Positions 3,343 to 54,480 of a DNA stretch of 64,000 nucleotides are shown in pieces (the stretch's first letter is position 1; the number at the start of each line of letters is the position of its first letter). This stretch comes from Alphaproteobacteria bacterium (GTDB lineage Bacteria; Pseudomonadota; Alphaproteobacteria; SP197): positions 2,208,001 through 2,272,000 of the forward strand of contig OZ219747.1 in NCBI GenBank assembly GCA_964291265.2. The letters run 5' to 3'. Under the pieces are notes generated by a model. That model saw nothing but the letters and a program-made list of their open reading frames with translations. It was not told the DNA's origin and made no database searches. The translations under genes were made by a program, and so were the position numbers.

Positions 3343-3417
3343 CGCGTGAGAGTGACGGGCGTCGTCGGGCGGCGCATGATGGGATGTCAGGCGGTTGCAT
3401 GGGAGGAATGGTGAGGC

Positions 3418-10171: not shown

Positions 10172-12705
10172 CGGCCTTTCTCAGAATTGAGGATCTCGTC
10201 GTCGAGGGGCGGCCGCCGTCAGGAGTCTGGGTGGAGACGGTGCATCGTTGCAGCGTGGAGGTGCATCCAGGCGAGGTCGTGGCACTGATCGGCGAATCGG
10301 GGGCCGGCAAGACGACGGTGGCGCTGGCGGCGCTGGGTTATGCGCGGCCGGGAACCCGATTCCGGAACGGCAGGGTCCTTCTCGAGGACCGCGATGTCCT
10401 CGCCATGTCGCTGGCCGAGAAGCGTGACCTGCGCGGCCGCGACATCGCCTACGTTGCACAGAGTGCGCAGGCCTCGCTCAACCCCTCCATTCCCGTGGGC
10501 GAACAGGTTGCCGAAAGTCTGCACCTGCATCGGATCGCCGCCGGTGCCGATGCTGCGCGGCGGATGATCGAGCTGCTCGATCTCCTCGACATTCCACATC
10601 CCGAGATGATTGCGCGGCGCTATCCGCACCAGACGTCGGGTGGTCAGCAGCAGCGCATCATGATGGCCATGGCACTGGCCTGCCGGCCCCGGCTGCTGGT
10701 GCTCGACGAACCGACGACGGCGCTCGACGTGACAACGCAGATCGAGGTGCTCAAGGCGATCAAGTCGGTCACTCGCGACCTCGGTACCGCATCGATCTAC
10801 GTCAGCCATGATCTTTCCGTCGTCGCCCAGGTGGCCGACAGGATACTGGTCATGAACCAGGGGCATGTCGTGGAACAGGGGGACACCTCCCGCATTCTCG
10901 ACGCTGCGAAGGAGGACTACACGCGAACCCTGCTGGGCGCGGTGAAGTCGCCGCCCTCGCCCGGGAGAGGGCTGGTCGACCGTTCCGTGACGCGCGACAG
11001 CGATCCGGCGATCTCCGTCACGCATACCTCGGCCAGCTATGTCCGGCAGGCGCTGTTCGGCAGCATCGAGCGTGAACAGTACGTGCTTCATGACATTGCG
11101 CTCGATGTCTGGCCTCGCGAAGTGCTGGCCGTGGTCGGCGAATCGGGGAGCGGCAAGTCAACCCTTGCCAGGGTCATGGCCGGTCTTCATCCACCCCTTC
11201 CCGGCGCCAGGATCACGCTTGACGGCGATCTCCTTGCCGGCCGGGCGAGGCGCAGGACACGCGATCAGCTTCGTCGCATTCAGATCATTTTCCAGAGCCC
11301 GGACCAGTCACTCAATCCGGAACGGCGCGTCGACGACGCCATCGGCAGGCCCCTCGAACTCTATTTCGGCATGTCGGGTTCCGAGAAGTACGACCGGATT
11401 GCCGATCTCCTCGAGATGGTCGGACTCGACCCCGATGACGCGGGACGCTTTCCCGCCGAGCTGTCGGGGGGTGAGCGCCAGCGTGTCTCCATTGCCAGGG
11501 CCTTTGCCGCCGAGCCTGACGTCATCCTGTGTGACGAAGTTCTCTCCGCCCTCGATACCGTGGTGGCCGCCCGTGTGCTCGAACTGATGAAGGAACTGCG
11601 GGAATCCCAGCAGGTGGCATACGTCTTCATCAGCCACGATCTCTCGACGGTCGCGTCGATCGCCGACCGGGTGGCGGTCATGTATGCCGGCAGGATCGTC
11701 GACGTCGGGTGCACCGACGATGTGTTCGCCCCGCCGCATCATCCCTACACGCAGCTTCTCATCAACTCCGTGCCGGTGCTGCGCCAGGGATGGCTCGAGG
11801 AGGTCATCACAAGCCGCGAGACGGAAGCGGGCATGCGGTGTGCCAGGCGAACTGGCGGAAGGTAGGGGGTGAAAGTCCCCTGGAACGAAGGAGTAACCAA
11901 ACCACGTTTCTCCGCGAGCCGTGCGTCGGTTCCCGCGAGGGGGCAGGCGAAGCGTCGGTAGCGGTACGGATGGGCAGGGCTAATGAGCACCGAAAAAGCT
12001 ATCATCCGGGGTGCCGAGGCTTTCGCATTGGTCGAAGGCAACATCGCAGGCATCGATTTGGTGAGATGTCGGCGAGCCCCGCGGTGTCAGAGAACCCATG
12101 CACGTCCGCACGCCTTCTGTTGGGACCCTGGGAGATCTTCAAACCGTCCCGCCGGTTGTGGCGGGACCGCATGGGGAAGGAGAAAACCGAAGCCTATGAT
12201 GTACGGTTTGAAGAAGTCGGATGAGGCCGTAGTACCTGTGAAGGCGGCGAACAAGGAAGCGTTAGCTTCTGCGGAGTCGCTGGAGGAAAGGGCCTCAACC
12301 AAGGGGAATCCGGGACGCTAAAGCACGCACCGAACGCAGTGTCGGGCAAGCGTGCCACAGGCGGCGGATCGGATACGGGAAGCCGCAGGCTAGTCCAGTG
12401 GTTTGCCGTCCAGTACCCGAGGTAGGAGCCGGATGGATTAACGTCCACGTCCGGATCTGCGCGGGGGGTGCGCAGCAATGCGCATCCCTACCGCGTCTTC
12501 CAATGTCATGCTTCACGACCGCCCGTGTCCCTTTCGCATGCGCTGCCCCCTTGTCATGTCCGGAACCTGCGACAGGGAGCCGGCACCGGCAAGGGAGATG
12601 GCAAACGGGCACATCGTCATGTGCCAGCACGACGAGGCAACCCTCCTCGCGGCGCAGGGCGGGGCCCCGGGGTCGAGGAGGGCAGTCATCTCTCGCGGCA
12701 GGTAG
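10168..12705 (+). CDS. ABC transporter ATP-binding protein (two ATPase domains), interrupted by a group II intron; exons 10168-11837 and 12498-12705
   Basis: Walker A GESGAGKT and GESGSGKS, HPYT; intron removal gives EAGMR|SNVMLHDRPCPFRMRCP...HIVMC, the Cys-rich C-terminal tail. Confidence 0.88.
11838..12497 (+). mobile_element. ORF-less group II intron (660 nt)
   Basis: 5' GTGTG; homologous to 23020-24938 with the RT ORF deleted; domain V/VI-like end gagccggatg...ccctaccgcgtc; removal restores host frame. Confidence 0.9.
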
Positions 12706-16996: not shown

Positions 16997-17317
16997 TCAC
17001 GTATCCCTTCCGTAGCCGCGTGGCGGTTCGATGTCCTCGAGGGCCTCGATGTCGGCATCGGCGACGCTCTGCAGGCGTTCTCCGTAAGGCGTGTCACGGA
17101 GGCTTTCGGGGATGCTGTCGAGGCGGTCACGCCATTCGTCCTGCAGGGCGCGCAGTTCGGCCACGGCGTCGTTCCAGCGTTGCGGTCGCGAGCGCCGGTC
17201 ACGGTGCTTTGGGGTGTGGACGGGAGGGATGCCGGCCTTGCGCCGTTCCCGGTATCGCCGCTGCTTTTCGGCGGGCGTGAGGGGCATGAGTGGTCTCCTT
17301 GTGACGGACGTGGTCAT
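16997..17317 (-). CDS. Small hypothetical protein of the IS21 element
   Basis: LTPAEKQRRYRER...PPRGYGRDT; ATGA overlap with the primase-like gene. Confidence 0.7.
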   Translation of the reverse strand: MTTSVTRRPLMPLTPAEKQRRYRERRKAGIPPVHTPKHRDRRSRPQRWNDAVAELRALQDEWRDRLDSIPESLRDTPYGERLQSVADADIEALEDIEPPRGYGRDT

Positions 17318-18207: not shown

Positions 18208-18895
18208 GCCTGAGCCGCCAGGAGTCGCTGTCGATGGAGATGAGGGTTGCGTCGTGCATGAGCCGGTCGACGGTGCCGGCGATGCCGGAGGCGCTGGGGA
18301 AGACGCGGTCCCACTGGGCGAAGGCGAGGCTTGTTGTGACCATGGTCGAGCGGCGCTGATAGCGCCGCGAGACGATGGCGTAGAGGATGTCGGCATGGTG
18401 GCTTTCGAGGGTCACGTAGCCGATTTCGTCGAGGACGAGCAGGCGGGGCCTGGCGAGGATCGCGAGGCGGCGGCGCAGCTCGCTGCGCGAGACGGTCTCG
18501 GCGAGTGCCTCGAGCAGTTCCGGCGCCTTCTCGAAGCGGACGGTGTGGCCGTGCAGCAGGGCCTGGTGCGCCACGTTGGCGGCGATCATGGTCTTTCCGG
18601 TGCCCTGCCCGCCGACGAGCACGGCGTTGTCCGCACGGTCGACGAAGCCGAGGCCGAGGAGCGCTTCGACATGAGCCCGGCTGATGTCGCGCGGCCATGT
18701 CCAGTCGAAGTCCGCCAGGGGCTTGAAGGCGGGCAGCCGCGCCGCGGCGCGGCGGCGCTCGTGGCTGCGGGCCCTGCGGGCCTGTTCCTCGCCGCTGACC
18801 ACCTCCTCGATCCATGCGGTCCCGGCGACCTCGTCCCAGCGTTCGACGAGCCCGTGGAGGCCGAGCGCCCGGGCACGCTCCCTGAGCTCGCTCAT
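18194..18895 (-). CDS. istB: IS21 helper ATPase IstB
   Basis: DFDW, Walker A GGQGTGKT, Walker B LLVLDEIGY, VDRLMH. Confidence 0.92.
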   Translation of the reverse strand: MSELRERARALGLHGLVERWDEVAGTAWIEEVVSGEEQARRARSHERRRAAARLPAFKPLADFDWTWPRDISRAHVEALLGLGFVDRADNAVLVGGQGTGKTMIAANVAHQALLHGHTVRFEKAPELLEALAETVSRSELRRRLAILARPRLLVLDEIGYVTLESHHADILYAIVSRRYQRRSTMVTTSLAFAQWDRVFPSASGIAGTVDRLMHDATLISIDSDSWRLRRETR

Positions 18896-20385: not shown

Positions 20386-20417
20386 GAACTCCCTCCCTTT
20401 GGTTCCTCAACGCCGCA

Positions 20418-23019: not shown

Positions 23020-24938
23020 GTGTGCCAGGCGAACTGGCGGAAGGTAGGGGGTGAAAGTCCCCTGAAACGAAGGAGTAACCAAACCACGTTTCTCCGCGAG
23101 CCGTGCGTCGGTTCCCGCGAGGGGGCAGGCGAAGCGTCGGTAGCGGTACGGATGGGCAGGGCTAATGAGCACCGAAAAGTCCGTTGTTCGGGGTGCCGAG
23201 GCTTTCGCATCGGTCGAAGGCAACATCGCAGGCATCGATTTGGTGAGATGTCGGCGAGCCCCGCGGTGTCGGAGAACCCATGCACGTCCGCACGCCTTCT
23301 GTTGGGACCCTGGGAGGTCTTCGAACTATCCCGCCTGTCGTGGCGGGACCGTGTAGGGAAAGGAGAAAGCCGAAGCCTATGAGGAACGGTTTGAAGAAGT
23401 CGGATGGGGCCGTAAGACCGGTGAAGGCGGCGAACAAGGGAGCGTCAGCTTCTGCGGAGTCGCTGGAGGAAAGGGCCTCAACCAAGGGGAATCCGGGACG
23501 CCAAAGCACGCACCGAACGCAGTGTCGGGCAAGTGTGCCACAGGCGGCGGACCGGATACGGGAAGCTGCAGAGAGGAACCCGAAGGAGCGTCTCACTGCA
23601 CTCTTCCATCACATTACGCCGGACGCGCTCCGGGCGGCCTACTTCGGTTTGAAGAAGGAAGCCTCGGCAGGTGTCGACGGCGTGACGTGGGCGGCGTATG
23701 GCGAGGGTCTGGACGAGCGCTTGCTTGATCTGCACTCGCGCCTGCATCGTGGGGGAGCGTACCGGGCGCCGCCGGTTCGGCGGGTTGAGATACCCAAGCC
23801 GGACGGCGGGACACGACCGCTCGGGATTGCCGCACTGGAGGACAAGATCGTCCAGAAGGCGGTTGTGGATGTGATCCTGACACCGATTTATGAGGTGGAG
23901 TTCCTTGGCTTCAGCTACGGGTTCCGACCGGGCCGAGGGGCGCATGACGCTCTCGACGCCCTGGCGTTCGGGATCGAGCGGCGCAAGGTCAACTGGATAG
24001 TCGACGCGGACATTCAGGGGTACTTCGACACAATCCCGAGGGATTGGTTGATCAAGTTCCTGGAGCATCGCATTGGCGACAGGCGGGTGATCCGTCTGAT
24101 CCGCAAGTGGCTGAACGCTGGCGTCATGACCGACGGATCATGGAGCGACACCGGTGCGGGCACGCCTCAGGGCGCCATTGTCAGCCCCTGCCTGGCGAAC
24201 GTGTTTCTGCACTACGTGCTCGATCTGTGGTTTCACAAGGCATGGCGTCCGAAGGTTCCGAACGGTAAAGCGATCATTGTCCGCTACGCGGACGATATTG
24301 TGGTCGGGTTCCAGCATAAGCGGGATGCGGAGACATACCTTCGCGACGTTCGGGAGAGGCTGGACCGCTTTGGTCTCACCCTTCACCCGGACAAGACCCG
24401 TCTCGTTGAGTTTGGACGGTTTGCCAAGGCGAACCGGCGATCTCGCGGGGCGGGCAGGCCGGAGACGTTCGACTTCCTGGGCTTCACGCACTTCTGCACG
24501 GAGACCCGGAGAGGACGCTTCAGGCTTGGTCGCAAGCCGGTCGCAAAACGGGTCGCAAGGACCCTGGCGCGCATCGAGGAGGTGCTTCGCAATCGACGGC
24601 ATCACGACATATGGGAGGTCGGCATGTGGCTTGGGCGAGTTGTCAATGGCTGGTCCAACTACTTCGCCGTTCCGGGGTCGACCCGATGGCTGCGCACGTT
24701 CCGCCAAAGGCTGCAACGCCTATGGCTGCGAGCGATCCGCCGCCGCTCCCAGCGCCACTGCTTTGACTGGAAGCGATTGGAGCGCATGACCGAGCTTCTT
24801 TGGCCGCGCGTCTCCATCCGCCACCCATGGCCGGACCAGCGGTTTACCGTCAAGCACCCGAGGTAGGAGCCGGATGGATTAACGTCCATGTCCGGATCTG
24901 TGCGGGGGGTGCGCAGCAATGCGCATCCCTACCGCGAC
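23020..24938 (+). mobile_element. Full-length group II intron, antisense to the IS66 transposase
   Basis: GTGTG 5' end, ...ctaccgcgAC 3' end; putative EBS1 cgcatc and EBS2 agtcc complementary to flank gatgcg and ggact. Confidence 0.95.
23535..24866 (+). CDS. ltrA: Group II intron reverse transcriptase/maturase (no endonuclease domain)
   Basis: AGVDG, RPLGI, SYGFRP, GTPQG, RYADD, FDFLGF, X domain; start uncertain (frame open from 23280). Confidence 0.93.
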   Translation: MPQAADRIREAAERNPKERLTALFHHITPDALRAAYFGLKKEASAGVDGVTWAAYGEGLDERLLDLHSRLHRGGAYRAPPVRRVEIPKPDGGTRPLGIAALEDKIVQKAVVDVILTPIYEVEFLGFSYGFRPGRGAHDALDALAFGIERRKVNWIVDADIQGYFDTIPRDWLIKFLEHRIGDRRVIRLIRKWLNAGVMTDGSWSDTGAGTPQGAIVSPCLANVFLHYVLDLWFHKAWRPKVPNGKAIIVRYADDIVVGFQHKRDAETYLRDVRERLDRFGLTLHPDKTRLVEFGRFAKANRRSRGAGRPETFDFLGFTHFCTETRRGRFRLGRKPVAKRVARTLARIEEVLRNRRHHDIWEVGMWLGRVVNGWSNYFAVPGSTRWLRTFRQRLQRLWLRAIRRRSQRHCFDWKRLERMTELLWPRVSIRHPWPDQRFTVKHPR

Positions 24939-27900
24939 CCAGCTGGTCTCGTCGCCGTGGCGCACCGTCAGCCGGTTCTGATGATCGAGGATGGCCTGAG
25001 CGAGAGGCGCGAACATCGGCGTCATCTTCTTCATGCCGCCAGCGATCGTTCCCGGCGCCATCGGCAGTCCCTGGTCTTCCAGCCATCGCGAGACCCGGCG
25101 CAGGGGACGCAAGCAGGCGAAGCGCTCATAGAGCACGCATTCCCAGACACTGATGCCGAAGGGGGTATTCGCAAGCAAGCGCAAAGGTGGCGGCGCGATG
25201 ATCTCCGCAGGCGCCGACGAACACTGACAACCACGGCGCCAACGCCCACGTTCAATCCGCCGGATATGAGCCTTGACATGGACCTCCATGATCGAGGTCT
25301 CGTGGCTGCCGTTGGCCACATAGGGCTCGCCGCAACACGGGCACGTGCGCTGCGATGCCGGTGGATCATGGCGTTCGTGCTTCTCCTTGAGCTTCGGACG
25401 CGGAGTGCGCCCGTGGCCGCTCTTGCCGGGTTGCTGACCCCGCTTGTTCCCGGTGCCTTCCTTCTTCTTCCGTTTCTCGCTCTTCGACCCGAAGCGCGCC
25501 GTCGCGTGCTTGGCACGCGTCCCGCGGAGATTCCTCAGCTCGCTCGCCTGTTCAGCGTTCTTGAGCTTCAGAGCGTCCCTTTCCTGCTCCAGCGCCTCCG
25601 CTCGGGCCTGTCCACGCTTCACCTCCCGGCGAGCCTCCTTGAGCTGATCACGAGTGCGGTCGAGATGAAACTTGAATGTGCCCGCACGGGCACGGGCAGA
25701 ATTCTTCGCACGGCGCAGGTCACGCATACGCGCTTCCGCCGCATCCGCACGAACCCGCTCCGCCTCATAGAGCGCACGCCAGTCAGGCGCCTCGCATGAC
25801 AAGGCCACTGACGCCCGACATAGGCCGTCACCACCTCCCGTCAGCTGCTGTGTCGCTCCGCGCGTCTCGGCAAAAGTCTTCATGGCCTCGACCATAATCG
25901 AGACCAAACGAGTTTACCAGCTCTTTCTCAGACGATAGTCAGCAAGACCCAAACCAACCAAAATCAGCCATCACCGAACGGCCGAACGCTTACGGCCCGA
26001 GAGGGGTGCCGAACCTGGCGTCCCGCGTGCTCGGCCTGAGCCTTCGGCGGCTGTCCGCCGACATCGAGGCCACGCACGGATACCCAGTGTTCCTCGCGGA
26101 GACGTTCGTCGACATCAAGCGCTTCGCCGGAACCTGCTATCGCGCGGCGAACTGGCGCTCGCTGGGATTGACGCGCGGCTTCGGTCGCAAGCCCGGCGGC
26201 ACCGCACGCTTCCGTCACCACGGCCAGCCCAAGGAGATCTTCATGTACGAACTGACCGACGGCGCCGCCGAGGCGCTGAGCCGGGACGCGATCCCGGAGA
26301 GCTGGAACGCGGAGCAGCACGACCAAGCCGGACCGATGGCCGCGTCCGGGCTGCGCAGTCTGTTCGCCTGCCTGGGCGAGGTGCCCGAGTGCCGCAAGCC
26401 CCGGGGCAAGCGCTATCCGCTGAGAACCATTCTCGCGATCGCCGTCGCAGCCCGGCTCGCCGGCTACCGCGGCGTGAGCGCATTCGCTCAGTTCGCCGCC
26501 CTGCTCACCCAGGAACAGCTGGCGGCGGTGGGTGCGTTCTACAGCCCGTCGAAGAAGCGCTACACGGCGCCCACGTCCACAACCTTCCACAGCATCCTCG
26601 CCAACCTGCCGCCCGAGACCCTGGACCACGCCATCGGCCTGTGGACGGCCCAGCAGGCCGGTGCAGACACACCGCTCGCCATGGACGGCAAGGACATCCG
26701 CGGCGCCTCCAGGCAGACCAAAAACGGGCGGCGGATGATGGTCGCAGCGGTCGAGCACGGAACCGGCATGGTCCTCGGCCAGGTCGAGGTCGACGCGAAG
26801 AGCAACGAGATCCCCGCCGTGCGGGACCTCGCCAGCAGCATCGACGTCACGGGCCGCATCGTCACCCTGGACGCGATGCACGCTCAGCACGAGACCGCGC
26901 AACGGCTTCTCGAGCGCCGCGCCGACTATGTCATCACGGCGATCAAGGATAACCAGGAGACCATGCTCGACGACCTCAAGGCCATCGACTTCAAGGGCGC
27001 GGCTTCGTTCGAGACACTCGACAAGGGGCACGGACGCATCGAGCGCCGCCGCTGTGCCGTGGTCGACATCTCCGGCGCCGAGTGGGACGGCTACGCCGCT
27101 CTCCACGGTCGCCACCAAGCCATCCGCATCGAGCGCGAACGCGAGATCTGCAAGACCAAAGAACGCAGTGTCGAGACCACCTGGTGCCTCACCTCGCTCG
27201 CTCCCGAACGCGCCGGACCCGAGATGCTTCTGGCCCTCGTGCGCGACCACTGGGTCATCGAAAATCGACTCCACTACGTACGCGACTTCACCTACGACGA
27301 GGACCGCTGCAGGGTCCATGTGCGCCATCTGCCACGCAACCTCTCCTGCCTGACAAACGCCGCCATCGCCATCGTGCGCTGCGGCGGACATTTCGACTAT
27401 ATGCCCGAAGCCAACCGGCACTACGCCGCCCGCGCCCAGGACGCACTCGACGCTATCCTCATCCCGCCCGGCGGATGAACCTTCGCTCCTGACCCCGCGC
27501 CACAAGCCGGGAACGCGCCGCCTGACGGCGCAACAGGACAGCTCTGTTCGCACACTCGAAAAAACGTGCCTAGTGAGCCCTGATGCACCAGCAGTGCCCA
27601 CTGAAACCAGCCCACAGCGAACCCGGGCGCCTCAACCATGCCGGTCCCTGTCACATCAACAATCCACAGGACTGAAAAAAGAATGGTCCTGAGCGGAACC
27701 ACACAGATCTTGATCTTTGCCATCAACATCAACCCCTGTGGTCGGACATCCATGCGTTGTACGCCATGCCGCACCATCGGCCTCAGGCAAAGACGTGCCG
27801 GACCTGCGCACATTCCGCCTGCCTTGGGATCGGGCGCCTGCAACTATGCGATCCGCCGTCCACACCACATGGCAGCCTGGGATACCGGAGCCGCCAGTTC

Positions 27901-34032: not shown

Positions 34033-36078
34033 CGGTGGGGTTGGTGTGATCCGCCAGGTTGTCGGCTTCGTCGCATTCAGATCATTTTCCAGAGCCCGGA
34101 CCAGTCCCTCAATCCGGAACGGCGCGTCGACGGCGCCATCGGCAGGCCCCTCGAACTCTATTTCGGCATGTCGGGTTCCGAGAAGTACGACCGGATTGCC
34201 GATCTCCTCGAGATGGTCGGACTCGACCCCGATGACGCGGGACGCTTTCCCGCCGAGCTGTCGGGGGGTGAGCGCCAGCGTGTCTCCATTGCCAGGGCCT
34301 TTGCCGCCGAGCCTGACGTCATCCTGTGTGACGAAGTTCTCTCCGCCCTCGATACCGTGGTGGCCGCCCGTGTGCTCGAACTGATGAAGGAACTGCGGGA
34401 ATCCCAGCAGATGGCATACGTCTTCATCAGCCACGATCTCTCGACGGTCGCGTCGATCGCTGACCGGGTGGCGGTCATGTATGCCGGCAGGATCGTCGAC
34501 GCCGGGTACACCGACGATGTGTTCGCCCCGCCGCATCATCCCTACACGCAGCTTCTCATCAACTCCGTGCCGGTGCTGCGCCAGGGATGGCTCGAGGAGG
34601 TCATCACAAGCCGCGAGACGGAAGCGGGCATGCGGTGTGGCGAACTGGCGGAAGGTAGGGGGTGAAAGTCCCCTGAAACGAAGGAGTAACCAAACCACGT
34701 TTCTCCGCGAGCCGTGCGTCGGTTCCCGCGAGGGGGCAGGCGAAGCGTCGGTAGCGGTGCGGATGGGCAGGGCTAATGAGCACCGAAAAATCCATGTTTC
34801 GGGGTGCCGAGGCTTTCGTAATGGTCGAAGGCAACATCGCAGGCATCGATTTGGTGAGATGTCGGCGAGCTCCGCGGTGTCAGAGAACCCATGCACGTCC
34901 GTACGCCTTCTGTTGGGACCCTGGGAGGTCTTCGAACTATCCCGCCTGTCGTGGCGGGACCGTGTAGGGAAAGGAGAAAGCCGAAGCCTATGAGGAACGG
35001 TTTGAAGAAGTCAGATTCGGCCATAGTGTGTGCTGGGCAGCGCCCAGATCAGGTGGGTTCAAGTCCCACTGGCGCTCGGGTAAGGGGCGCCATATCCAAA
35101 AGCGGGGGTCATTCCTCGCTGGCCGGGGTGAGCGAATAAGCGACGCCCTAAACGGGCACGAAGTTGGAAACGACGGACACTGCCAAGGGAAGAGCTAAGG
35201 TAACTACTCACCCCCTACTGATGACGGATCGTTTTTCCTGACGGGTTCGGATCCGGCATTTTCTCTTGCCGCCTTCACTTGCTCGCTGCCGATGATCGGA
35301 TGTGCGTGTTCCGACTGACAAGAAGCGGATCGATCTTCGGCTTCAGCTCCACGTTCCGGCCTTGTATGACCAGGTTTTGTCCCCGTGATGATGCAATCAT
35401 CCACAGCGGTTGGCTGCCTTTCCAATCCTCTGGAGATATGCGCTTGACATTGTAGGAGGGGCACTCTACATGCTGGCCATCGGGGCGGTTTGCGTCGGAG
35501 ATATTGATGGCGGCATGGTACGGATCGAAGGCGACGACGGGTCTGAGCCAGGCGATCGTCGCGGCCATGCCGCCGCATGACGTGTACATCGAGGCGTTCC
35601 TTGGGGGCGGCGCGATCATGAAGCGCAAGCCTCCGGCGCTACGCAGCATCGGCATCGACCTCAACCGACGGGCGATCGACACCTTCCGCTGTGACTATCC
35701 GGTGGAGCTTCACCAAGGCTGCGCCCTGCGTTTTCTCGAGACCTTCGCCTTCCAGGGCCGCGAGCTGGTCTACTGCGACCCGCCTTACGTGCAGTCGACG
35801 CGCCGGTCGCAGCGCCGCTACCGCTTCGACTGCACGGACGACGACCATGCAGGACTTTCCTACGCTACGGCTGATTTTTCGGGAAGCCGATGAATCGCGC
35901 CCGAATCGGCCATCTGATCTTTCGCGAGGCCGACGAATCGAGGCCGAATCGGGATGTCCTGGACGGATTCCGTGGCTTCAGTGCCGTCCGCATGGCGACA
36001 CCGGCAGCGTTTTCGGCCCGGATGCTTGGTTCTTGATGTTCTAGCAGCGTTCCGGGGTCCCCGGACGCTCAAGGCGTC

Positions 36079-38075
36079 TCAGGGCCGGGTCAGGGCGTTG
36101 ATGGCCTCGCGACGGTCCAGTTGTAGGCGGCGCCGGGTTTCGGCGAGGCTTTCGGCCTCGCGGCGGTTGGCGAAGATCACCGCGAGCGCGATGTTGTTGA
36201 GGCTGGCCCGGTTCGCCGGGCCGTTGTCGGTGCGGGTCAGGCAGGCGTCTTCGCCGAAGACGCAATCCCTTTGTCGATGGTTCAGATTTTCCACGGCCCA
36301 GTGGCGGCGGTTCAGTCGCAGCAACTCTTCCGGCGACGTGGCCCCCGTATCGAGAGAGGTGATGATGTAATCGGTTTCCGTGTAATCCTTCTCTTCTTGC
36401 TTCCCGGCATCGCCGGAGCCTTTCTTCCCGGCATCGCCGGGGCCTTTCTTCCCGGCATCGCCGGGGCCTTTCTTCCCGGCATCGCCGGAGCCTTCCTTCC
36501 CGGCATCGCCGGGGCCTTCCTTCCCGGCATCGCCGGAGCCTTCCTTCCCGGCATCGCCGGAGCCTTCCTTCCCGGCATCGCCGGAGCCTTTCTTCCACGG
36601 CTCCCGATAGCGGGTGATGCGGGCGACCTGACGGACGCCCGGATAGTTGATCAGACCGTCCAACGGGACGAGGACGCTGATCGAACGCTGCTCCAGTCGA
36701 CCGTGCGCCTTGTCGAACGGCTCCGTGAAGTGGCCGGTAGCGTCTTTTTGCCAATTGATGCTGTCGAGGATGGCGAAGGTCTCCGGAGCGTTGCCCTTGA
36801 CGACGAAGACGTAATCCGCGCGTTGTGTGATCAGCTTTGCGGTATGGCGTGTCGTGTGCAGCGCGTCGAGGGTGATCACCTTGCCGCCGATGTCGCTGCG
36901 CTCCAGGAGATCGTGCATGGCCGCCAGTTCGCCGCCTTCGTCGTTGAAGTTCAGGAGGGAAAAGGGCGCGCCGGTCTCATGGTCGACAAGGGCCACGGTC
37001 TCGTGACGGCCATCGCCGTTGCGGTTGGCGCCGCGGATGCGCTTGCCGTCGGCGGCGAGTGCACGGGCGAGGTGAAGCCGAGGCCGGGACCAGCGGGTGA
37101 GCACATCCTCCAGAGCCTCGGGGTCGATCGACTGGATAACCCGGTGGATGGTGGACTTGGAGACGGGCTCGCGAAGCCCCGTCTTCGGGTTAAGCCACGC
37201 GCCGATGGCCTCCAACTCCTCCTGGGACAGGGACCGCGCGAACTGCGCGGCGGCGACACAGCCCTTCATGTTGGCGAACTCGGCGAGCACGTGCACGGTG
37301 AGCACCGATGCCGCGGTATGCTTCCTTCCCTGCGCCCGGCGGAAGTCGGGAATGGCCGCGAGCTCGGCGTAGAGCGAGCGCAGCACCTTGGGGTCCCGGG
37401 GCGCCAGTTCGGGGCATGAGGGCGGCGCCACGTCGGGGGGAAGCGGCAGCGGGCTCGACAGCAGCGCCCGGGCATCGCGCCTCAGTGCCGTAACGTAGAT
37501 ATCCTTGGGCTTGCCGTGAGGATCGGTGTAACGCCCGTTGGAGCGGGCAAACCCCTTGGTCTCACCCAGACACGTCCAGCCCGCAGCCCTCAACATCGTG
37601 CCGGCAAAGATCTCCGGATCGCAGAACGTCTCCGCCAGCAGCACCCCGTGGCCGTGCACCTGCAGCCAATCGTCACAGAGCCGGCGCGTCATGCACGCAA
37701 GGAAACTCAGAAGCAAGGTTCGCAAACACCCCGGGCTTGGAGATGAGCAAGAACCGCGTGTTGTTGGCCACCACCCCGAGCCGCTGGAACTGCTGCTTAA
37801 GGCTTCCAGCCGGTCCACTGGTCGCGGGGAGCGCACTTGAAGGCGCCGTTCTGCCACGCCGCCAGCCCCAGCCAATGGCCCCTGAAGGTCGCAAGGTAGC
37901 GCAGACCGCGACCCGCCAGGCGACGGAAGCCGAGATAGTGGTGCTTGTTCATCAGCGCGTCCCACAGCGGACGCTCCTCCGGCCTCGCCAGGCGAACATC
38001 GACCTCAGACAGGGAAAAACCCTCAGGTGCTTCCTGATGGATCGGGACAGCTTCCATGAGCTTGCGAATCGACAT
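36079..38075 (-). pseudogene. DUF4338-ISAs1 transposase fusion, frameshifted near 37800
   Basis: HHYLGFR...PRDQWTGW in one frame, then NNTRFL, ETFCD...GTMLRAAGW, ADGK, DALH, HGRLE, HWAVEN in another. Confidence 0.85.
36400..36595 (-). repeat. 24-bp in-frame tandem repeat x8 (K[KE]G[SP]GDAG)
   Basis: Unit cttcccggcatcgccggRgccttY on the + strand, no spacers. Confidence 0.95.
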
Positions 38076-38520
38076 GACCGGACCGTCGCACATCCCAAGC
38101 GGGATGGCCAGCGGAAAATGTCCGCGCGCGTGCAACATACGAACGCCTGACGTCAAGTGAAATCAAGCGAATTCCAGCGTGGGAAGGCCTTGACGACCAT
38201 GTTGCGCTCCTTGACATCCTGACGTCGCTGCCCTGCCAGGTGATGATCTCCGGCTATCCCTCGCGGCTCTACGACACGCACCTCGCCGGCTGGCGCTCGG
38301 CCGAGATCCAGGTCAACAACCAGGCCTGCGTTGTCACCGAGAAGCTGTGGTTCAACTTCGCACCGGGCCGGCCGCACTGGCATACGTGTGCGGGCAGGAA
38401 CTCGATCGACCGCCAGCGCATCAAGCGCCTCGCAGAGAGCTGGGCGCGGCGCTACCGGACGATGCCCGAAGGCGAGCGGCTCGCCGTGCTGGCGGCAGTC
38501 ATGGCGGTGGAGGCGTCGTC

Positions 38521-39999
38521 ATGGCGAGCGTGAACGGCACGTCTGTGCGCCAGGAGGCCGACGTCTTCCAGAAGCAGTTCCAGGATCTCCGCAAGCAGGG
38601 CAAGGTCAACCAGGAGTGCGAGGAGCTCTTCCGCGGCATGCTGATGCTGATAAAGCTGTTGCTGACCGTGCTCATGGAGAAGATCACACGCAAGACAAGC
38701 CGGAACTCCGGTCTGCCGCCATCGCAGACTGACAAGGACGAGAGCGCGAGGCGCACCGGGAGCCACGGCAAGGGCCCGAAGCCGAACCAGCAGACGGGCG
38801 ACAACCTGCGCACGACCACCATCGAGGAGACGATCACCGTCGATGCCTGCGACGCCTGCGGCGCCGACCTCCACGACGTCGACCCCGTCGACCGGGAGTG
38901 CCGCGTCCTCTACGACATCGTGTTCGAAGTCGTCGAGCGCCGCGTCGAAGCCGAGATCAAGGAATGTCCGAAGTGCCGGGCCCGGACCAAGGGCCGGTTC
39001 CCAGACAACATGCCGGGCCCCCTGCAGTACGGCGTCAGCATCCAGGCCCTCGTCATCAACCTGCTGATCGCCCAGATGCTGTCCCTGCGTCGTGCCGTCT
39101 CGCTCGTGCACGCGATCTCCGGCATCAAGCTCTCCGAGGCGACCTGCCTCGGCTATGTCCGGCGCTTTCACGATGCCCTCGCATCATGGGAGGAGGCCGC
39201 CGTGGCCCATCTCCTGCAACAACCGGCCCTGCATGTCGACGAGACCGGCTTCCGGGTCGCCGGCAAGACCCAATGGCTCCATGTCGTCACCGACGGCACC
39301 CTGACGTGCAAGTTCCCGCACCCCAAGCGCGGCCGGGAGGCGATCGAAGAGATCGGCATCATCCCGCGCTACAAGGGCGTCCTGATCCACGACTGCTGGG
39401 CTGCCTACATGGGCTACGATCAATGCCGCCACCAACTGTGCGGCAGCCATCTCCTGCGCGAACTGACCTTCGTCGTCGAGTCCAACGGCTACCGCTGGGC
39501 GCGACTGATGAAAAGCCTACTGCGCGAGGTCTCCCGCAGGGTCAACAAGAGCGCATCCAAGACCTTGAACGAGGCCGACCGCCGGGCCGTGCGCAAGCGC
39601 TACCGCACCATCCTCACCCAGGGCGCCAAGGAACTGCCCGACATCCCGCCACGGACGAAAGGAAAACGGGGACGCATCGCAAAGTCCGACGCGCACAACC
39701 TGCATGAACGTCTCGTGAAACACGAGAAGTCCGTCCTGCGCTTCATGAAGGACCCCAACGTCAGTTTCACAAATAATACCGGAGAGCAGAAGATCAGGAT
39801 GACAAAGGTCAAGATCAAGGTGTCCGGATGTTTCCGCACCATGCCCCACGCCAAGGCATGGTGCCGCGGCTCAAGCTACCTCACCACCATGGACGCACTC
39901 GGCTACAACCCTCACGTCGCCATCCACATCGCCCTCGACGGAAAGGCCGTAGACATCCTCAACCAGCACTACGGACAACCAGACCCTAACAAGGGGTGA
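38521..39999 (+). CDS. IS66-family transposase (TnpC-like), apparently intact
   Basis: SRNSGLPPSQ, CDAC...CPKC, HVDETG, IHDCW, LCGSHLLREL, FTNNTGEQKIRM, KVSGCFR. Confidence 0.92.
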   Translation: MASVNGTSVRQEADVFQKQFQDLRKQGKVNQECEELFRGMLMLIKLLLTVLMEKITRKTSRNSGLPPSQTDKDESARRTGSHGKGPKPNQQTGDNLRTTTIEETITVDACDACGADLHDVDPVDRECRVLYDIVFEVVERRVEAEIKECPKCRARTKGRFPDNMPGPLQYGVSIQALVINLLIAQMLSLRRAVSLVHAISGIKLSEATCLGYVRRFHDALASWEEAAVAHLLQQPALHVDETGFRVAGKTQWLHVVTDGTLTCKFPHPKRGREAIEEIGIIPRYKGVLIHDCWAAYMGYDQCRHQLCGSHLLRELTFVVESNGYRWARLMKSLLREVSRRVNKSASKTLNEADRRAVRKRYRTILTQGAKELPDIPPRTKGKRGRIAKSDAHNLHERLVKHEKSVLRFMKDPNVSFTNNTGEQKIRMTKVKIKVSGCFRTMPHAKAWCRGSSYLTTMDALGYNPHVAIHIALDGKAVDILNQHYGQPDPNKG

Positions 40000-41148
40000 G
40001 TAGTTACGAGCTAAGTTGGTTCACTGTCGAGAGACAACCGGAGGGCAGGGTGTCCACCGTGAGGTGGAATCTGAAGGGCTTGCGGAGAAGTACCGGGCCG
40101 TAATCGAGGGGGCGACCCCATGATGAATCGGTCGGCCAAAGACGGGGCAAGGTCGAGCCGGCACTATGGCGGCGAAGGCGTTCTTACTCACCCGTCGCAC
40201 CAAGGTGTTTGCGAACGGCACGGTACGGAAGATCTGGACGTGACTCCAGGAGGGCTCGTCGTGTTCCCGGGTGGCACCGGGATAACGGCCCCTATAAGCC
40301 GAGAGGCGAAGTGGGAAAGGATGCACGGCGAGCAATCGGACAACCGAATAGTACCACAAGCCCGGTGAAAGCCGGGTGACCGCGCGAGCGGCGACCGGGT
40401 GGGTCGGGGAAGGCGGTTGGCAGAGGTGGTTGGTGAGAGACGGTGAAGGAGCGAGTAAGGATCATGACGCGGACAAGTTCCATGAGCGAAAGACCCGGAC
40501 GTCATGGGCCGAGGAGACTGGTTCACTGGCTCAACCTGACGGGAGAAAGGAAGGTCCACTCACTGGTGGGATCGCTTGATCTCACTGGTTCCTTCCCTGA
40601 ACCTTCGAAGAGCCCCCCCTGTGAAAGCGGCTTACGGGAAAACCGTACGGGCCGTTTGAGCGGCGGACGGAGGCCAGCCCTGCGGGGCGCCTCTTCCGAC
40701 CCGACACCTGTGAAGGCGGCGAACAAGGGAGCGTCAGCTTCTGCGGAGTCGCTGGAGGAAAGGGCCTCAACCAAGGGGAATCCGGGACGCCAAAGCACGC
40801 ACCGAACGCAGTGTCGGGCAAGCGTGCCACAGGCGGCGGCTCGGATACGGGAAGCCACAGGCCAGTCCAGTGGTTTGCCGTCCAGTACCCGAGGTAGGAG
40901 CCGGATGGATTAACGTCCACGTCCGGATCTGCGCGGGGGGTGCGCAGCAATGCGCATCCCTACCGCGTCTTCCAATGTCATGCTTCACGACCGCCCGTGT
41001 CCCTTTCGCATGCGCTGCCCCCTTGTCATGTCCGGAACCTGCGACAGGGAGCCGGCGCCGGCAAGGGAGATGGCACACGGGCACATCGTCATGTGCCAGC
41101 ACGACGAGGCAACCCTCCTCGCGGCGCAGGGCGGAACCTGATTCCTCC

Positions 41149-50268: not shown

Positions 50269-50300
50269 TGCGGCGTTGAGGAACCAAAGGGAGGGAGTTC

Positions 50301-51794
50301 ATGGCGATCGACGAGGACACGCGGGCGACGATCGTGCGGCTGTCGCGGGCCGAGGGCTGGGCTGTGGGGACGATTGCCCGGCATCTCGGCGTGCACCACG
50401 GCACGGTGACGCGGGCGCTCAAGGCGTCGGGGCAGGAGCGGCGGCCGCGGGCCAAGCTCATCGACCCCTTCGTTGCCTTCCTCGGGGAGCGTCTTGAGGC
50501 GTCGCCGGACCTTCCGGCCAGCACGCTCTGGCGACAGGTCGTGGCCCTGGGCTACCGCGGCGGCGAGGATCACTTCCGTCACGACCTGCGCCGCCTCGGG
50601 CTGAGGCCGGTGAAGAGGCCCGAGCCGTCACTGCGGCTGAGCTTCCTTCCGGGCGAGCAGGCGCAGGTTGACTGGGCCGAGTTCGGGAAGGTCCGCATCG
50701 GCCGGGCGGAGCGCAGGCTCATGGGGCTTCTCGTCACCCTCAGCTACTCGCGCCAGACTGTCCTGAGCCTGTTCCACGACGCGCGGATGGCCAGCTTCCT
50801 GCAAGGCCATGTCGAGGCTTTCGCGGCATTCGGGGGTGTGCCGCGGAGGCTTCTGTACGACAACCTGAAGAGTGCCGTGGTGACGCGCCGCGGCAAGGCG
50901 GTCACCTATCATCCGATGCTGCTCGGCCTCGCGGCCCACTATGCCTTCGAACCGAGCGCCGCCTGGCCCAGGAGCCCGCAGGAGAAGGGCCGCGTGGAAC
51001 GCCGTGTGCGCTTCGCGCGCACCGGGTTCTTCGCCGGGCGCGACATCACGGTCCCGCTCGGCGAGCTCAACGCCGCAGTTCGGGAGTGGTGCTTCGGCGC
51101 CGCCGCGGAGCGGCCCTGGCCGGACGACGACAGTCTCCTGGTGCGGGACGCCTTCGCCCGGGAGAGGGAGCACCTGATCGTCCTTCCCGCCGATCCCTTC
51201 CCGCATCACGAGGTCCGCCCGGTGCGCATCGACAAGACCTGCCACGCCCGCTTCGACACCAACGACTACAGCGTTCCGGGTAGCTTCTCCAAGGCCCTGC
51301 TGACGCTGGTCGCCGACCGCGACGAGGTTCGCATCCTCGACGGCGCCGACGAGGTCGCGCGCCACCGACGCTCCTACGACAGGAAGCAGGCCGTCACCGA
51401 TCCGGAGCATGCCAGGGCGATCGCCGCGGGCAAGCGGCGGGCCCGCTCCATGAGCGTCCGCGACCGGGTCCTGCGCACCGTGCCGCGGGCCGAGGAGATG
51501 CTGGCGCGCGCCGGGACCAACGGGCGCAACGTGGCCTCCTGCGCCCGGATGCTGGAGACGCTTCTCAACGCGCACGGCGCCGACGCTCTCGACCGGGCTG
51601 TCGCCACGGCGCTGGAGCGCGGCTCGTGCCACCCCGAAACCGTGCGCGTCATCATCGAGGAGCGCCGCCGGGAGCAGGGCCTGCCGCCCCTCAGCATCGC
51701 CGACGACGGCCGCGGCGGCCGTGGCACGACGCCGCGGGGGACCGCTCTCGACGCCTACGACAGGCCCGAAGCCAGCGCCAGGAACAAGACATGA
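50301..51794 (+). CDS. istA: IS21 transposase IstA
   Basis: QVDW, YDNLKS, KGRVE; GGAG RBS. Confidence 0.93.
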   Translation: MAIDEDTRATIVRLSRAEGWAVGTIARHLGVHHGTVTRALKASGQERRPRAKLIDPFVAFLGERLEASPDLPASTLWRQVVALGYRGGEDHFRHDLRRLGLRPVKRPEPSLRLSFLPGEQAQVDWAEFGKVRIGRAERRLMGLLVTLSYSRQTVLSLFHDARMASFLQGHVEAFAAFGGVPRRLLYDNLKSAVVTRRGKAVTYHPMLLGLAAHYAFEPSAAWPRSPQEKGRVERRVRFARTGFFAGRDITVPLGELNAAVREWCFGAAAERPWPDDDSLLVRDAFAREREHLIVLPADPFPHHEVRPVRIDKTCHARFDTNDYSVPGSFSKALLTLVADRDEVRILDGADEVARHRRSYDRKQAVTDPEHARAIAAGKRRARSMSVRDRVLRTVPRAEEMLARAGTNGRNVASCARMLETLLNAHGADALDRAVATALERGSCHPETVRVIIEERRREQGLPPLSIADDGRGGRGTTPRGTALDAYDRPEASARNKT

Positions 51795-52492
51795 GCGAGC
51801 TCAGGGAGCGTGCCCGGGCGCTCGGCCTCCACGGGCTCGTCGAACGCTGGGACGAGGTCGCCGGGACCGCATGGATCGAGGAGGTGGTCAGCGGCGAGGA
51901 ACAGGCCCGCAGGGCCCGCAGCCACGAGCGCCGCCGCGCCGCGGCGCGGCTGCCCGCCTTCAAGCCCCTGGCGGACTTCGACTGGACATGGCCGCGCGAC
52001 ATCAGCCGGGCTCATGTCGAAGCGCTCCTCGGCCTCGGCTTCGTCGACCGTGCGGACAACGCCGTGCTCGTCGGCGGGCAGGGCACCGGAAAGACCATGA
52101 TCGCTGCCAACGTGGCTCACCAGGCCCTGCTGCACGGCCACACCGTCCGCTTCGAGAAGGCGCCGGAACTGCTCGAGGCACTCGCCGAGACCGTCTCGCG
52201 CAGCGAGCTGCGCCGCCGCCTCGCGATCCTCGCCAGGCCCCGCCTGCTCGTCCTCGACGAAATCGGCTACGTGACCCTCGAAAGCCACCATGCCGACATC
52301 CTCTACGCCATCGTCTCGCGGCGCTATCAGCGCCGCTCGACCATGGTCACGACAAGCCTCGCCTTCGCCCAGTGGGACCGCGTCTTCCCCAGCGCCTCCG
52401 GCATCGCCGGCACCGTCGACCGGCTCATGCACGACGCAACCCTCATCTCCATCGACAGCGACTCCTGGCGGCTCAGGCGTGAAACCCGATAA
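51791..52492 (+). CDS. istB: IS21 helper ATPase IstB
   Basis: Walker A and B; ATGA overlap with istA. Confidence 0.92.
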   Translation: MSELRERARALGLHGLVERWDEVAGTAWIEEVVSGEEQARRARSHERRRAAARLPAFKPLADFDWTWPRDISRAHVEALLGLGFVDRADNAVLVGGQGTGKTMIAANVAHQALLHGHTVRFEKAPELLEALAETVSRSELRRRLAILARPRLLVLDEIGYVTLESHHADILYAIVSRRYQRRSTMVTTSLAFAQWDRVFPSASGIAGTVDRLMHDATLISIDSDSWRLRRETR

Positions 52493-53372
52493 ACCCCGCC
52501 GCGTCGACTTCGACGCCGTCAAGCGCATGCCGTTCGAACGCATCGCCGCCGACTGGGGATACGTCCGCGACGAACAGGCCTCGACACGCGCCAACCCCGT
52601 CCTGTGCGCACCCGGCCTGCCGAAGCTCGTCACGAAGTGCCTCAACAACGGACACTGGGTCTACTTCAACACCCAGAACGATGAAGACAACGGAACCGTC
52701 ATCGACTTCATGCTCAACCGCGGACTGGCCTTCGCCGACATCTGCACCCGCTTCACAGCACCCGACGCCGCGCCACGCGACTTCCGCAGCCTCTGGGCCG
52801 CGGCAACGCCCGATGCGGCCCCGGACTGGCTCACCGGGCGCGGCATCCTCCCGGAGACCCTCGACACCTGCCGCCCCCTGGTCCGCCGCGACCACAACGG
52901 ACGCGTCCTCTTCGCCCATCGCAACAGGAAGCGAAAGCTCACCGGCTTCGAGATCGGTCCCCCCGACGGACCGAAACGCTTCGCCACCGGTGGAACCCGA
53001 AGCCTGTTCGCCGTCCGCGCCGGAACCGCCGCGGACCTCGAGGCCCTCGTCATCACCGAAAGCGCCGTCGACGCCCTCAGCCTGGCCCAGATCGACCAAT
53101 GTCCCCCCAGCCACGCCTTCCTCTCCACCGCCGGGGCACCCTCGCGAAGACAGCACGAACAGATCAGCCTCGCCGCAAGCAGCCTGCCCAACGTCAGGAC
53201 CATCGTCCTCGCCCAGGACCACGACGAGGCCGGAGAGCGACAGGCCGAAACCCTGCGCAAAAAGATGAAGCTCCCCTCCCACGTCTCGTTCCACAGACGC
53301 AGACCGCCGGAAAACGCCGACTGGAACGACGTCGTCAACGCCAGGACCAAAGAACCACAAGCGAGATCATGA
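52479..53372 (+). CDS. Toprim-domain primase-like protein (DUF3991/Toprim_2-like)
   Basis: ITESAVDALS, AQDHDEAG, DWND; GTG start overlaps the end of istB. Confidence 0.8.
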   Translation: MKPDKPRRVDFDAVKRMPFERIAADWGYVRDEQASTRANPVLCAPGLPKLVTKCLNNGHWVYFNTQNDEDNGTVIDFMLNRGLAFADICTRFTAPDAAPRDFRSLWAAATPDAAPDWLTGRGILPETLDTCRPLVRRDHNGRVLFAHRNRKRKLTGFEIGPPDGPKRFATGGTRSLFAVRAGTAADLEALVITESAVDALSLAQIDQCPPSHAFLSTAGAPSRRQHEQISLAASSLPNVRTIVLAQDHDEAGERQAETLRKKMKLPSHVSFHRRRPPENADWNDVVNARTKEPQARS

Positions 53373-53689
53373 CCACGTCCGTCACAAGGAGACCACTCAT
53401 GCCCCTCACGCCCGCCGAAAAGCAGCGGCGATACCGGGAACGGCGCAAGGCCGGCATCCCTCCCGTCCACACCCCAAAGCACCGTGACCGGCGCTCGCGA
53501 CCGCAACGCTGGAACGACGCCGTGGCCGAACTGCGCGCCCTGCAGGACGAATGGCGTGACCACCTCGACAGCATCCCCGAAAGCCTCCGTGACACGCCTT
53601 ACGGAGAACGCCTGCAGAGCGTCGCCGATGCCGACATCGAGGCCCTCGAGGACATCGAACCGCCACGCGGCTACGGAAGGGATACGTGA
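53369..53689 (+). CDS. Small hypothetical protein of the IS21 element
   Basis: ATGA overlap with the primase-like gene; conserved in both copies. Confidence 0.7.
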   Translation: MTTSVTRRPLMPLTPAEKQRRYRERRKAGIPPVHTPKHRDRRSRPQRWNDAVAELRALQDEWRDHLDSIPESLRDTPYGERLQSVADADIEALEDIEPPRGYGRDT

Positions 53690-54480
53690 TCCCGCAAGAC
53701 CCTTGAACGCGGTCACGCGTTACCATCCAGGAATGAGAACGTCTCACCCCGACGCGCCGCTCAGCCTCCCCGGGAAACTCCCGGGCCGTCCAAACGACAC
53801 CGCATCACGAGACTGCCGCAGCCGCTGGCCGGACTGGCTTACAGGTCGCAGCATCCGCCCGAAAACACTCGACGCCTGCCGCACCCTGCAGGACGAATGG
53901 CGTGACCGCCTCGACAGCATCCCCGAAACCCTCCGTGACACGCCTTACGGAGAACGCCTGCAGAGCGTCGCCGATGCCGACATCGAGGCTCTCGAGGACA
54001 TCGAACCGCCACGCGGCTACGGAAGGGACACGTAATCTCGCAAGACCCTTGAACGCGGTCACGCGTTACCATCCAGGAATGAGAACGTCTCACCCCGACG
54101 CGCCGCTCAGCCTCCCCGGGAAACACCCGGGCCGTCCAAACGACACCGCATCACGAGACTGCCGCAGCCGCTGAGCCGCAGCAACGCCCGATCCGCCGCC
54201 GGACTGGCTCACAGGTCGCAGCATCCGCCCGAAAACACTCGACGCCTGCCGCACCCTGCGCCGCCGCAACCGCAACGCACGCAGCCTCTTCGCCCAGCGC
54301 AACAGAAACCGTCAGCTCTCCAGCCTCGAGATCGTCCCGCCCGACGAACCACGACGAGGACGGAGAACGCCAGAACAAGACCCCGCGCAAAAGCCTGAAG
54401 CTCCCCTCCCACATCACGTTCCACAAACGCCGAACGCCAGAAAACGCCGACCGGAACGACATCGTCAACGTCAATGCAAG
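53540..54480 (+). repeat. Internal 346-bp-period direct repeat and decayed primase fragments at the IS21 right end
   Basis: ctgcaggacgaatgg...ccgcagccgctg occurs twice; 54175-54480 resembles pieces of 52800-53345; mirrored at 16206-17146. Confidence 0.85.

Follow-up and report, generated by a model that had tools for sequence, protein, structure and literature searches.

The nested introns and their sisters

The 64,000-nucleotide (nt) window analysed here (the whole stretch of contig OZ219747.1 between positions 2,208,001 and 2,272,000, forward strand, in the alphaproteobacterial assembly GCA_964291265.2) contains three related group II introns, matched by RF02005 at 11872, 23054 and 34665 in an Rfam scan. 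Two of these, sisters A and B, are uninvaded, and the third, intron C, is split by an unrelated inner group II intron lying in its domain III. The inner element appears to be a decayed copy of a widespread mobile lineage that sits mostly in the domain III loop of other group II introns, which it likely enters through pairing of its exon-binding site 1 (EBS1); we give this reading a probability of roughly 0.87. The principal features are listed below (ORF, open reading frame; IBS1, intron-binding site 1; RT, reverse transcriptase).

34635-40969, forward strand: outer (host) intron C, ORF-less, damaged and split after 35027
34635..35027, forward strand: 5′ half of C, with domains I and II and the 5′ strand of domain III (RF02005, 167 bits at 34665-34889; alignment with the sisters)
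35021..35027, forward strand: IBS1 CCATAGT, spanning the last part of the domain III basal stem and the internal loop on its 5′ side (7/7 Watson-Crick pairs with EBS1; folds of sister A)
35028..40705, forward strand: inner (invading) group II intron, ORF-less and interrupted by an insertion (ends match the uninterrupted genome copy C2:1375422 and GTDB relatives)
35078..35084, forward strand: alpha loop of the inner intron, pairing with alpha-prime at 40183-40189 (98% of cells paired, 3/7 pairs changed on both sides, 15 sequences)
40163..40169, forward strand: EBS1 ACTATGG, in the Id3 hairpin loop of 9 nt (40161-40169) (covariation; stem with compensatory changes)
40208, forward strand: EBS3 (T), partner of target position +1 (A at 40706)
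40346..40352, forward strand: GAATAGT, the corresponding domain III site of the inner intron itself, with mismatches to EBS1 at -6 and -7
40625..40705, forward strand: inner intron domain V, with an AGC triad and a 5-nt loop, and domain VI (fold z = -3.3, 0/200 shuffles as stable)
40706..40969, forward strand: 3′ half of C, with the rest of domain III, an ORF-deleted domain IV and domains V and VI (97.7% identical to A-type copies)
11838..12497, forward strand: sister A, ORF-less and uninvaded, site CCGTAGT|A with the 7-mer at 12227-12233 (RF02005, fold; 15 such copies in the genome)
23020..24940, forward strand: sister B, RT-encoding and uninvaded, site CCGTAAG|A with the 7-mer at 23410-23416 (RF02005; 15 such junctions in the genome)

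An earlier note on this DNA had described a twintron with an inner intron at 35028-40705, and both its coordinates and its strings are present. The junction is precise: the sequences flanking the inner intron equal the continuous domain III of the sisters, and uninvaded sister copies read ...TAGT|ACC. The two sisters in the window also differ at the insertion site as that note had stated, reading GGATGAGGCCGTAGT (ending at 12233) and GGATGGGGCCGTAAG (ending at 23416). Its placement of the site in ribozyme domain III was borne out by folding, as sister A adopts the six-domain layout (z = -4.9, 20 shuffles) with a domain III basal stem UGAGGCC/GGCCUCA (fold z = -3.3), and the insertion point ...UAGU|A falls in the internal loop directly above that stem.

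This internal loop is a conserved and functionally important part of the ribozyme. Among metagenome relatives of the outer family (80 loci, of which 6 could not be anchored and 74 were scored; 48 distinct rows, 43 of them well anchored after 5 were judged mis-anchored) its commonest forms are ATAGT and GTAGT (29/48 distinct rows). Domain III is described as reinforcing domain V (PMC4476101). The boundaries are further supported by a relative, L016 (L-numbers denote relative loci and G-numbers genomes), for which contigs of 4/4 runs join position 2381 to 4406 and so remove exactly GT..AC. The joined form is present in contigs of three RNA libraries, whose runs are represented by contigs only and cover small shares of the locus (at most 0.18), and also in one run holding 98% of the whole stretch; it thus speaks for the boundaries and not for splicing. 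The type of locus seen in the window is poorly covered by RNA runs.

The inner intron begins with GTGTG at 35028, ends with CCGAC at 40705 and has a 5′ GUGYG, a 3′ AY, a domain V with an AGC triad and a domain VI, as expected of a group II intron. RF00029 reaches its cut-off on the corresponding region of several relatives, and RF02001 matches the inner intron weakly at 40053-40239. The named helices of domain I, including alpha-alpha′, are 99% paired with 15/34 pairs changed on both sides, a score that is favoured in the slide control because the structure was drawn from the very sequences scored. A single-sequence fold of 40080-40240 did not produce the EBS1 hairpin, and this structure rests on covariation.

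Three further features, none of which was mentioned in the earlier note, document the decay of the inner intron:

40464..40615, forward strand: RT/maturase ORF remnant, start and end kept and the middle deleted at 40569/40570 (compared with the ORF-bearing copy C2:1339362 and L008)
35200..40007, forward strand: insertion sequence (IS) of the IS66 family, 4.8 kb, with inverted ends GTAACTACTCACCCC; target duplication of 8 bp (35192-35199 / 40008-40015)
35850..38191, reverse strand: ISAs1-family element within the IS66 methyltransferase gene (transpos_ISAs1, NCBIfam, 147 bits), with a 10-bp duplication (35840-35849 / 38192-38201)

The IS66-family element encodes a D12-class adenine methyltransferase and a transposase (ORF ending at 39999) and is inserted in a peripheral part of domain I that is absent from relatives L073 and L092; each of its ends has 13-15 exact copies in the genome. 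Other IS66 copies show empty sites for the ISAs1-family element, which also encodes a DruA-like region. Intron C is damaged as well, since alignment with the sisters shows that the CCAG of the domain I basal stem (a stem seen in the sister A fold) is missing, and the 5′ strand of its domain III has two mismatches to its own 3′ strand. Probably neither of the two introns at this locus is still functional.

Several observations concern the outer introns themselves. The EBS loops of C (34795-34835) are unlike those of A and fit the insertion site of C more poorly. Its domain III 5′ strand (35010-35027) differs from that of B at 4/15 bases and matches other invader hosts of the L016 type; C may be a chimera, or its 5′ flank may have been brought along with the invader. 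A (11264-12662) and C (34061-41134) occupy the same position in two 96-98% identical ABC transporter gene ends, a local duplication with copies ~23 kb apart. The protein of sister B has RT and maturase domains without an endonuclease, and its insertion locus here is an IS66 transposase gene. The ORF-less A family ends in GTC and not the usual AY, yet it is represented by 15 nearly identical copies, most of them in a single repeated target, and was likely moved in trans by the protein of B. The outer family shows a stem-loop in Id3 and has no endonuclease; its sequence signatures make it a candidate class E-like family.

The inner lineage and its hosts

With an RT fragment of ~195 codons as query, 364 GTDB stretches were found to encode a relative, and the best 80 (68-91% identity) were taken together with five plasmid loci that are 54-65% identical over the full protein. 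Fifteen of the 80 GTDB loci lacked a mappable 5′ end or enough flank, and the remaining 65, with the five plasmid loci, give 61 distinct junctions. The relatives come from Alpha-, Beta- and Gammaproteobacteria, Acidobacteriota, Thermodesulfobacteriota, Myxococcota, Gemmatimonadota, Bacillota and others. The full protein of the lineage (436 aa) has only RT and maturase domains, and its RT (P0002) scores 377 bits with TIGR04416 (cut-off 300). A search of viral contigs found no relative.

A host intron was counted as confirmed where an Rfam domain I match lies upstream or a same-strand RT starts 57-376 nt downstream, the latter being the case at 41/66 loci with sufficient flank. By this rule 41 of the 61 distinct junctions lie in another group II intron, and about six others resemble domain III, by eye only. 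The earlier note had proposed a hyperparasitic intron and asked for its other insertion sites; the proposal stands, most of the collected sites being in introns. The hosts match several Rfam domain I family sets (D1D4-2, -3/-1, -4 and -6), of which the D1D4-3 hosts are presumably class C-like. In quick trees they are scattered over at least five deep RT lineages, with host L081 sister to Ni.ha.I1, and the inner RTs form one clade (Shimodaira-Hasegawa-like approximate likelihood ratio test, SH-aLRT, 100). Inner and outer RTs are about 27-31% identical.

An unbiased census of genome G041, an assembly that may pool two related genomes, found 22 copies of the invader, which retains ORFs there; 14 of these are in intron domain III. 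Among RT-bearing outer-type hosts of this genome 9 of the 13 scored are invaded (4/18 loci in the host set were unscorable). Near-identical inner copies occur in hosts of different classes within a single genome in G041, G043 and G048.

The genome that contains the window has four inner-family copies, all at the same outer-family site, preceded by CCATAGT (one), CCGTAGG (two) or TCGTAGG (one). Minimal C[AG]TAGT|A sites number 281 in this genome, so four out of four at one site is more than chance would give. Thirty other outer-family junctions are empty, 15 of them ORF-less with CCGTAGT and 15 RT-type with CCGTAAG. Three of the invaded hosts differ pairwise at 21-30 positions in ~380 nt and the inner copies at 2-4 in 727 nt (one difference in each comparison with the window copy stems from the cut at the IS junction). 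Diverged hosts with near-identical inner copies make at least three separate insertions likely, of which copies 2 and 3 may share one. No intact inner-family RT is encoded in this genome, the only ORF being cut after about 195 codons, and among 40 related genomes no close invader RT exceeds 47% identity. The A and B copies are almost all identical, which points to recent expansions. Another group II-like family of six copies (G000:C2 near 1366671, 3117529, 3658744, 3770628, 3772404 and 4090978) has the mismatched domain III site GGTCGAGT|A and is uninvaded.

Several observations weigh against a lineage devoted to introns. The sample consists of the closest 80 of 364, to which a few multi-copy genomes contribute heavily; about 13 of the 61 junctions are in IS genes, repeats or other DNA; for 8 of the 22 G041 copies Rfam finds no host domain I upstream; and none of the 74 scored metagenome relatives of the outer intron is invaded, so that the burden on hosts is patchy. 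Splicing and mobility were not observed, and the joined contigs of L016 are compatible with empty alleles. Sites outside introns include L007, L012, L050, L069 and L070. Among them L069, L070 and L050 are retargeted or stray members in apparent transposase genes, that of L070 carrying what we take to be an IS110-like motif. Two further insertions, L021 and L024 (L212 and L222 in the G041 census), are in a ~45-nt intergenic repeat at different loci, with no Rfam match.

Target recognition and the sister alleles

The pairing of ACTATGG (40163-40169) with CCATAGT (35021-35027) was examined in 60 aligned intron-target pairs, the IS-interrupted L090 being excluded. The two strings are exact reverse complements as first noted, and covariation now backs the EBS1 role. 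The columns that covary most with target positions -1, -2 and -3 are 40163, 40164 and 40165, and the one for +1 is 40208. Nucleotides 1-6 of EBS1 carry the pairing, with no mismatch in 47/60 pairs, one in 13/60 and two in none, and nucleotide 7 is loose. Overall 96% of positions 1-6 are paired vs 89% when targets are permuted (0/2000 permutations; kin are not independent). EBS3 is complementary to its target at every aligned site with a mapped 3′ flank, including three A:T variants and one C:G variant. The core ACUAUG, which corresponds to the domain III consensus, is kept across RTs only 54-65% identical.

Variants of the EBS1 loop match variants of the target, both between genomes (L005/L006, L026, L083, L073 and L076) and within one. 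Genome G048 has four ACTATGG copies at CCATAGT, one ACTTTGG copy at CCAAAGT in the same host family and one GCTATTG copy at GAATAGT; the within-genome examples are L320 (loop ACTTTGG, site CCAAAGT) and L321. Such matched pairs may reflect retargeting, or compensation after insertion that keeps splicing, and under either origin the EBS1 pairing is under selection. In L073 (position 2452, EBS1 CCACCGT) another group II intron is invaded in its domain V, with 7/7 pairing and a matching EBS3 change, which suggests retargeting from one ribozyme core motif to another.

A second pairing in the earlier note, GAATC (40125-40129) with GATTC (35014-35018), holds as string complementarity and fails as EBS2. 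It is 40% paired across the set vs 41% permuted, with 5/5 pairs at only 2/60 sites; 40128-40130 pair internally with 40212-40214, with compensatory changes; and GAATC is unchanged in fully retargeted members. Nor does a canonical IIB EBS2-IBS2 pairing emerge elsewhere, as no 5-nt window of domain I exceeds 77% pairing against registers -8 to -19. Only 40129 pairs often with target -14 (49/60), and both of these bases are conserved. Target positions -8 to -12 form a variable host stem, so loss of EBS2 would widen the host range. Farther upstream an AGTC.GA motif (-19 to -13) is enriched (C at -16 in 49/61 and G at -14 in 52/61); it resembles the domain II/III junction and recurs at several sites outside introns, and the protein is its likely reader.

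In the inner intron's own domain III, the mismatch to EBS1 at -6 recurs in 44/60 members vs 8/60 real targets (a few rows may be misaligned), and 10/60 members have no mismatch in EBS1 nucleotides 1-6. Avoidance of self-insertion is a possible explanation.

The suggestion that both sister alleles resist the invader survives, in part, for one of them. Sister A is not resistant by pairing, as it pairs with EBS1 at all seven positions (one G-U), its 7-mer is the invaded site in 7/60 relatives, and the upstream GGATGAGGCC is common to A and L066. Features beyond IBS1 might still make A resistant. Sister B (TAAG) is mismatched at -1 and -2, a double mismatch found at 0/60 invaded sites; of 50 sites facing the standard first two EBS1 bases 49 end in GT and one in GG. 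The three invaded RT-type hosts of the genome read TAGG, one step from B. The nearest relatives of B in two other genomes of the genus read TACG, in the company of no close invader RT that could be found there, and an unrelated G041 host family with the same TAAG is empty at 4/4 loci. The loop of L074 would match TACG; its 5′ part has been replaced, leaving the target unreadable.

Across 20 further invader-bearing genomes 37 of 48 outer-type loci could be scored (11 unscorable), with seven invaded and 30 empty; 18 of the empty loci are full matches and six have the double change. Counted by distinct allele, the double change occurs in 7/21 empty hosts of invader-bearing genomes vs 2/43 of the metagenome sample (Fisher p = 0.01 for 6/20 outer-type alleles, in a post hoc comparison of lineages that are not independent and with a background not shown to be invader-free). 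In G041 the four loci read of an ORF-less family with a full match are all empty. Because the invader has no intact RT here and 18/30 empty hosts match fully, resistance of B is at most suggestive, and we put escape of the B type at about even odds.

Competing explanations, known systems and significance

The preferred account of the lineage starts from the mobility of endonuclease-less introns, in which spliced RNA and RT reverse-splice into DNA and a primer from the replication fork is used (PMC4424553). RNA and RT of the present lineage would act in the same manner, guided by the EBS1 pairing (target -1 to -6) and the EBS3 pairing (+1) and not by EBS2, in whose place the protein would read AGTC.GA. 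Since host ribozymes would need the motif, any intron-rich genome would offer a self-renewing and gene-free target, and a host would splice and move only once its invader had spliced out. The genome described here would have received at least three insertions, then lost the invader RT and then seen the expansion of hosts A and B.

Much of this could in principle be produced by an intron with a short and loose target (~7 nt and a weak distal motif) and no specialisation, if insertions in domain III were harmless and those in genes purged. The sites outside introns (8/22 in G041 and the five loci named above), the disuse of EBS2, and the members L070, L076 and L056 retargeted to IS genes or other DNA fit such an intron. 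A free-ranging intron would, however, be expected to drift, and ACUAUG is kept across RTs 54-65% identical; the AGTC.GA motif is present even at non-intron sites, and all four genome copies chose domain III among 281 minimal sites. We regard this explanation as improbable. Even less probable is that nested copies descend from one old insertion copied with its host by composite mobility, duplication or recombination. Such copying would account for the nearly identical hosts of copies 2 and 3 (3 differences in 149 nt), for locus C, which shares the flanks of A (96-98%), looks chimeric and has mismatched domain III strands, and for the identical invaded hosts that recur in G041. It does not account for near-identical inner introns in hosts 6-8% apart here, or in different host classes within G041, G043 and G048, or for the coexistence of invaded and empty copies of the same host allele. 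Host copying thus explains some copies and is largely refuted for the lineage.

A narrower question, compatible with the preferred account, is whether the sisters are uninvaded simply because they expanded after loss of the invader RT, the TAAG of B being neutral drift. We consider this an even bet. No intact invader RT remains in the genome, the near-identity of the A and B copies marks them as recent, A is a full match yet empty in 15/15 copies, full-match hosts are empty elsewhere (the ORF-less G041 family, and 18/30 uninvaded hosts), and TACG occurs in two genus relatives in which no close invader RT was found. Drift alone fits less well with a double change seen at 0/60 invaded sites and in 7/21 uninvaded alleles vs 2/43 in metagenomes, with the same TAAG in an unrelated and empty (4/4) G041 host family, and with invaded RT-type hosts whose TAGG is one step from B. 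An extended form of the preferred account, in which the lineage is a cross-phylum hyperparasite of the ribozyme core of several intron classes engaged in an arms race, is tentative and falls somewhat short of even odds. Hosts would escape by changing TAGT to TAAG, TACG or TATC in unrelated families, the invader would follow by single EBS1 changes, EBS2 would have been dropped with a gain in host range, and purines at its own -6 and -7 would spare the invader itself.

Intron-targeting lineages are known, and those found described aim at the YADD motif or at domain IV; none was found for domain III. The closest parallel is the YADD-homing introns B.th.I3, M.a.I5, UA.I3 and P.l.I2, which target other introns (PMC2504315). 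They too are endonuclease-less, direct their EBS sequences to a motif conserved in introns or related retroelements, and form twintrons across distant taxa. What they target is the stretch of ORF codons for the RT active site, conserved across IBS1 and IBS2 (PMC2504315), whereas the target here is a ribozyme loop, present also in ORF-less hosts, with no need for IBS2. No YADD codons were identified in the 61 junction flanks, 41 of which are in domain III. B.th.I3 belongs to group g2 (PMC3552965 Table S2), to which the present lineage does not appear to belong (RT 32% identical to B.th.I3; approximately unbiased test p = 0.0004 in a quick tree with one g2 representative). A caveat comes from Cupriavidus necator N-1, for which a g2 RT of 435 aa is listed (PMC4244168 table) and whose plasmid pBB2 encodes a 434-aa member of our clade; pBB1, the other plasmid examined, encodes none. 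Membership in g1 (Rh.js.I1) or g3 (Ni.ha.I1) was likewise rejected (35-36% identity, separate in both quick trees). The comparison with ORF groups covered g1, g2 and g3.

Among twintrons, which are reviewed in PMC4424553, those of Thermosynechococcus elongatus have TeI3 in domain IV of TeI4 (PMC2882425), and they resemble the present case in having ORF-less inner introns at one conserved host site and near-identical inner introns in diverged hosts as a sign of separate insertions. There the insertion falls in domain IV between a pair of start codons, and inner and outer introns are close relatives in one genome that share a protein; here it is in domain III, in hosts of several classes and phyla whose RTs are about 27-31% identical to those of the invader. 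In the nested introns of Methanosarcina acetivorans the sites are in the RT ORF (summaries in PMC4424553 and PMC2504315), and the twintron of Trichodesmium has its site in domain I (PMC4649490). Both share with our lineage repeated, site-specific homing into group II introns as a perpetual site, where sequential splicing would restore the host, and in these sources neither is described as a cross-class domain III lineage. Porphyridium has domain IV twintrons (PMC4476101).

With class IIC and classes IIE/IIF the lineage shares the lack of an endonuclease; its closest solved RTs are IIC enzymes, and its domain I weakly matches RF02001. IIC introns insert downstream of terminator hairpins with a short EBS1. 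That terminator preference is documented (PMC8919778), and targeting of the class C type was rejected for the present lineage, which uses 6-7 nt of EBS1 pairing at sites in domain III. EBS2 is absent in IIC and dispensable for splicing in IIE and IIF (PMC3753933). The 5-nt domain V loop is as in IIE/IIF, and alpha-prime lies in an internal loop, in contrast to the stem-loop tip of those classes (PMC3753933). No description of a domain III-targeting lineage was found in the literature searched, most subscription papers being outside its reach.

Elsewhere in the window, a 632-aa secreted-looking MORN-like repeat protein (13323-15221) adjoins intron A, and an element carrying genes for a Mu/IS21-like transposase and a Toprim-domain protein is present as an inverted duplicate (about 16100-20400 and 50300-54600). 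In two genomes of the genus (G012 and G013) tandem copies of another group II RT ~2 kb apart (L085-L089) suggest intron arrays.

Among intron-on-intron specialists, those known so far have protein-coding motifs or close relatives as targets; the target of this lineage is an RNA structural motif. Because that motif is common to intron classes, nearly every group II intron is a host whether or not it has an ORF, and the lineage may contribute to a ceiling on intron copy number in genomes rich in introns such as G041, where 9/13 scored hosts are invaded. Twintrons are dropped by standard intron pipelines (PMC4028801, PMC8919778), which may explain why the lineage was missed. Seven target bases, escape-like alleles and matched EBS1 variants make up a small host-parasite system between two ribozymes, and natural variants reveal dispensable bases in the domain III loop of an active intron (e.g. 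the 15 TAAG copies of sister B). A short-target, EBS2-free intron with naturally retargeted variants is also a candidate scaffold for gene targeting.

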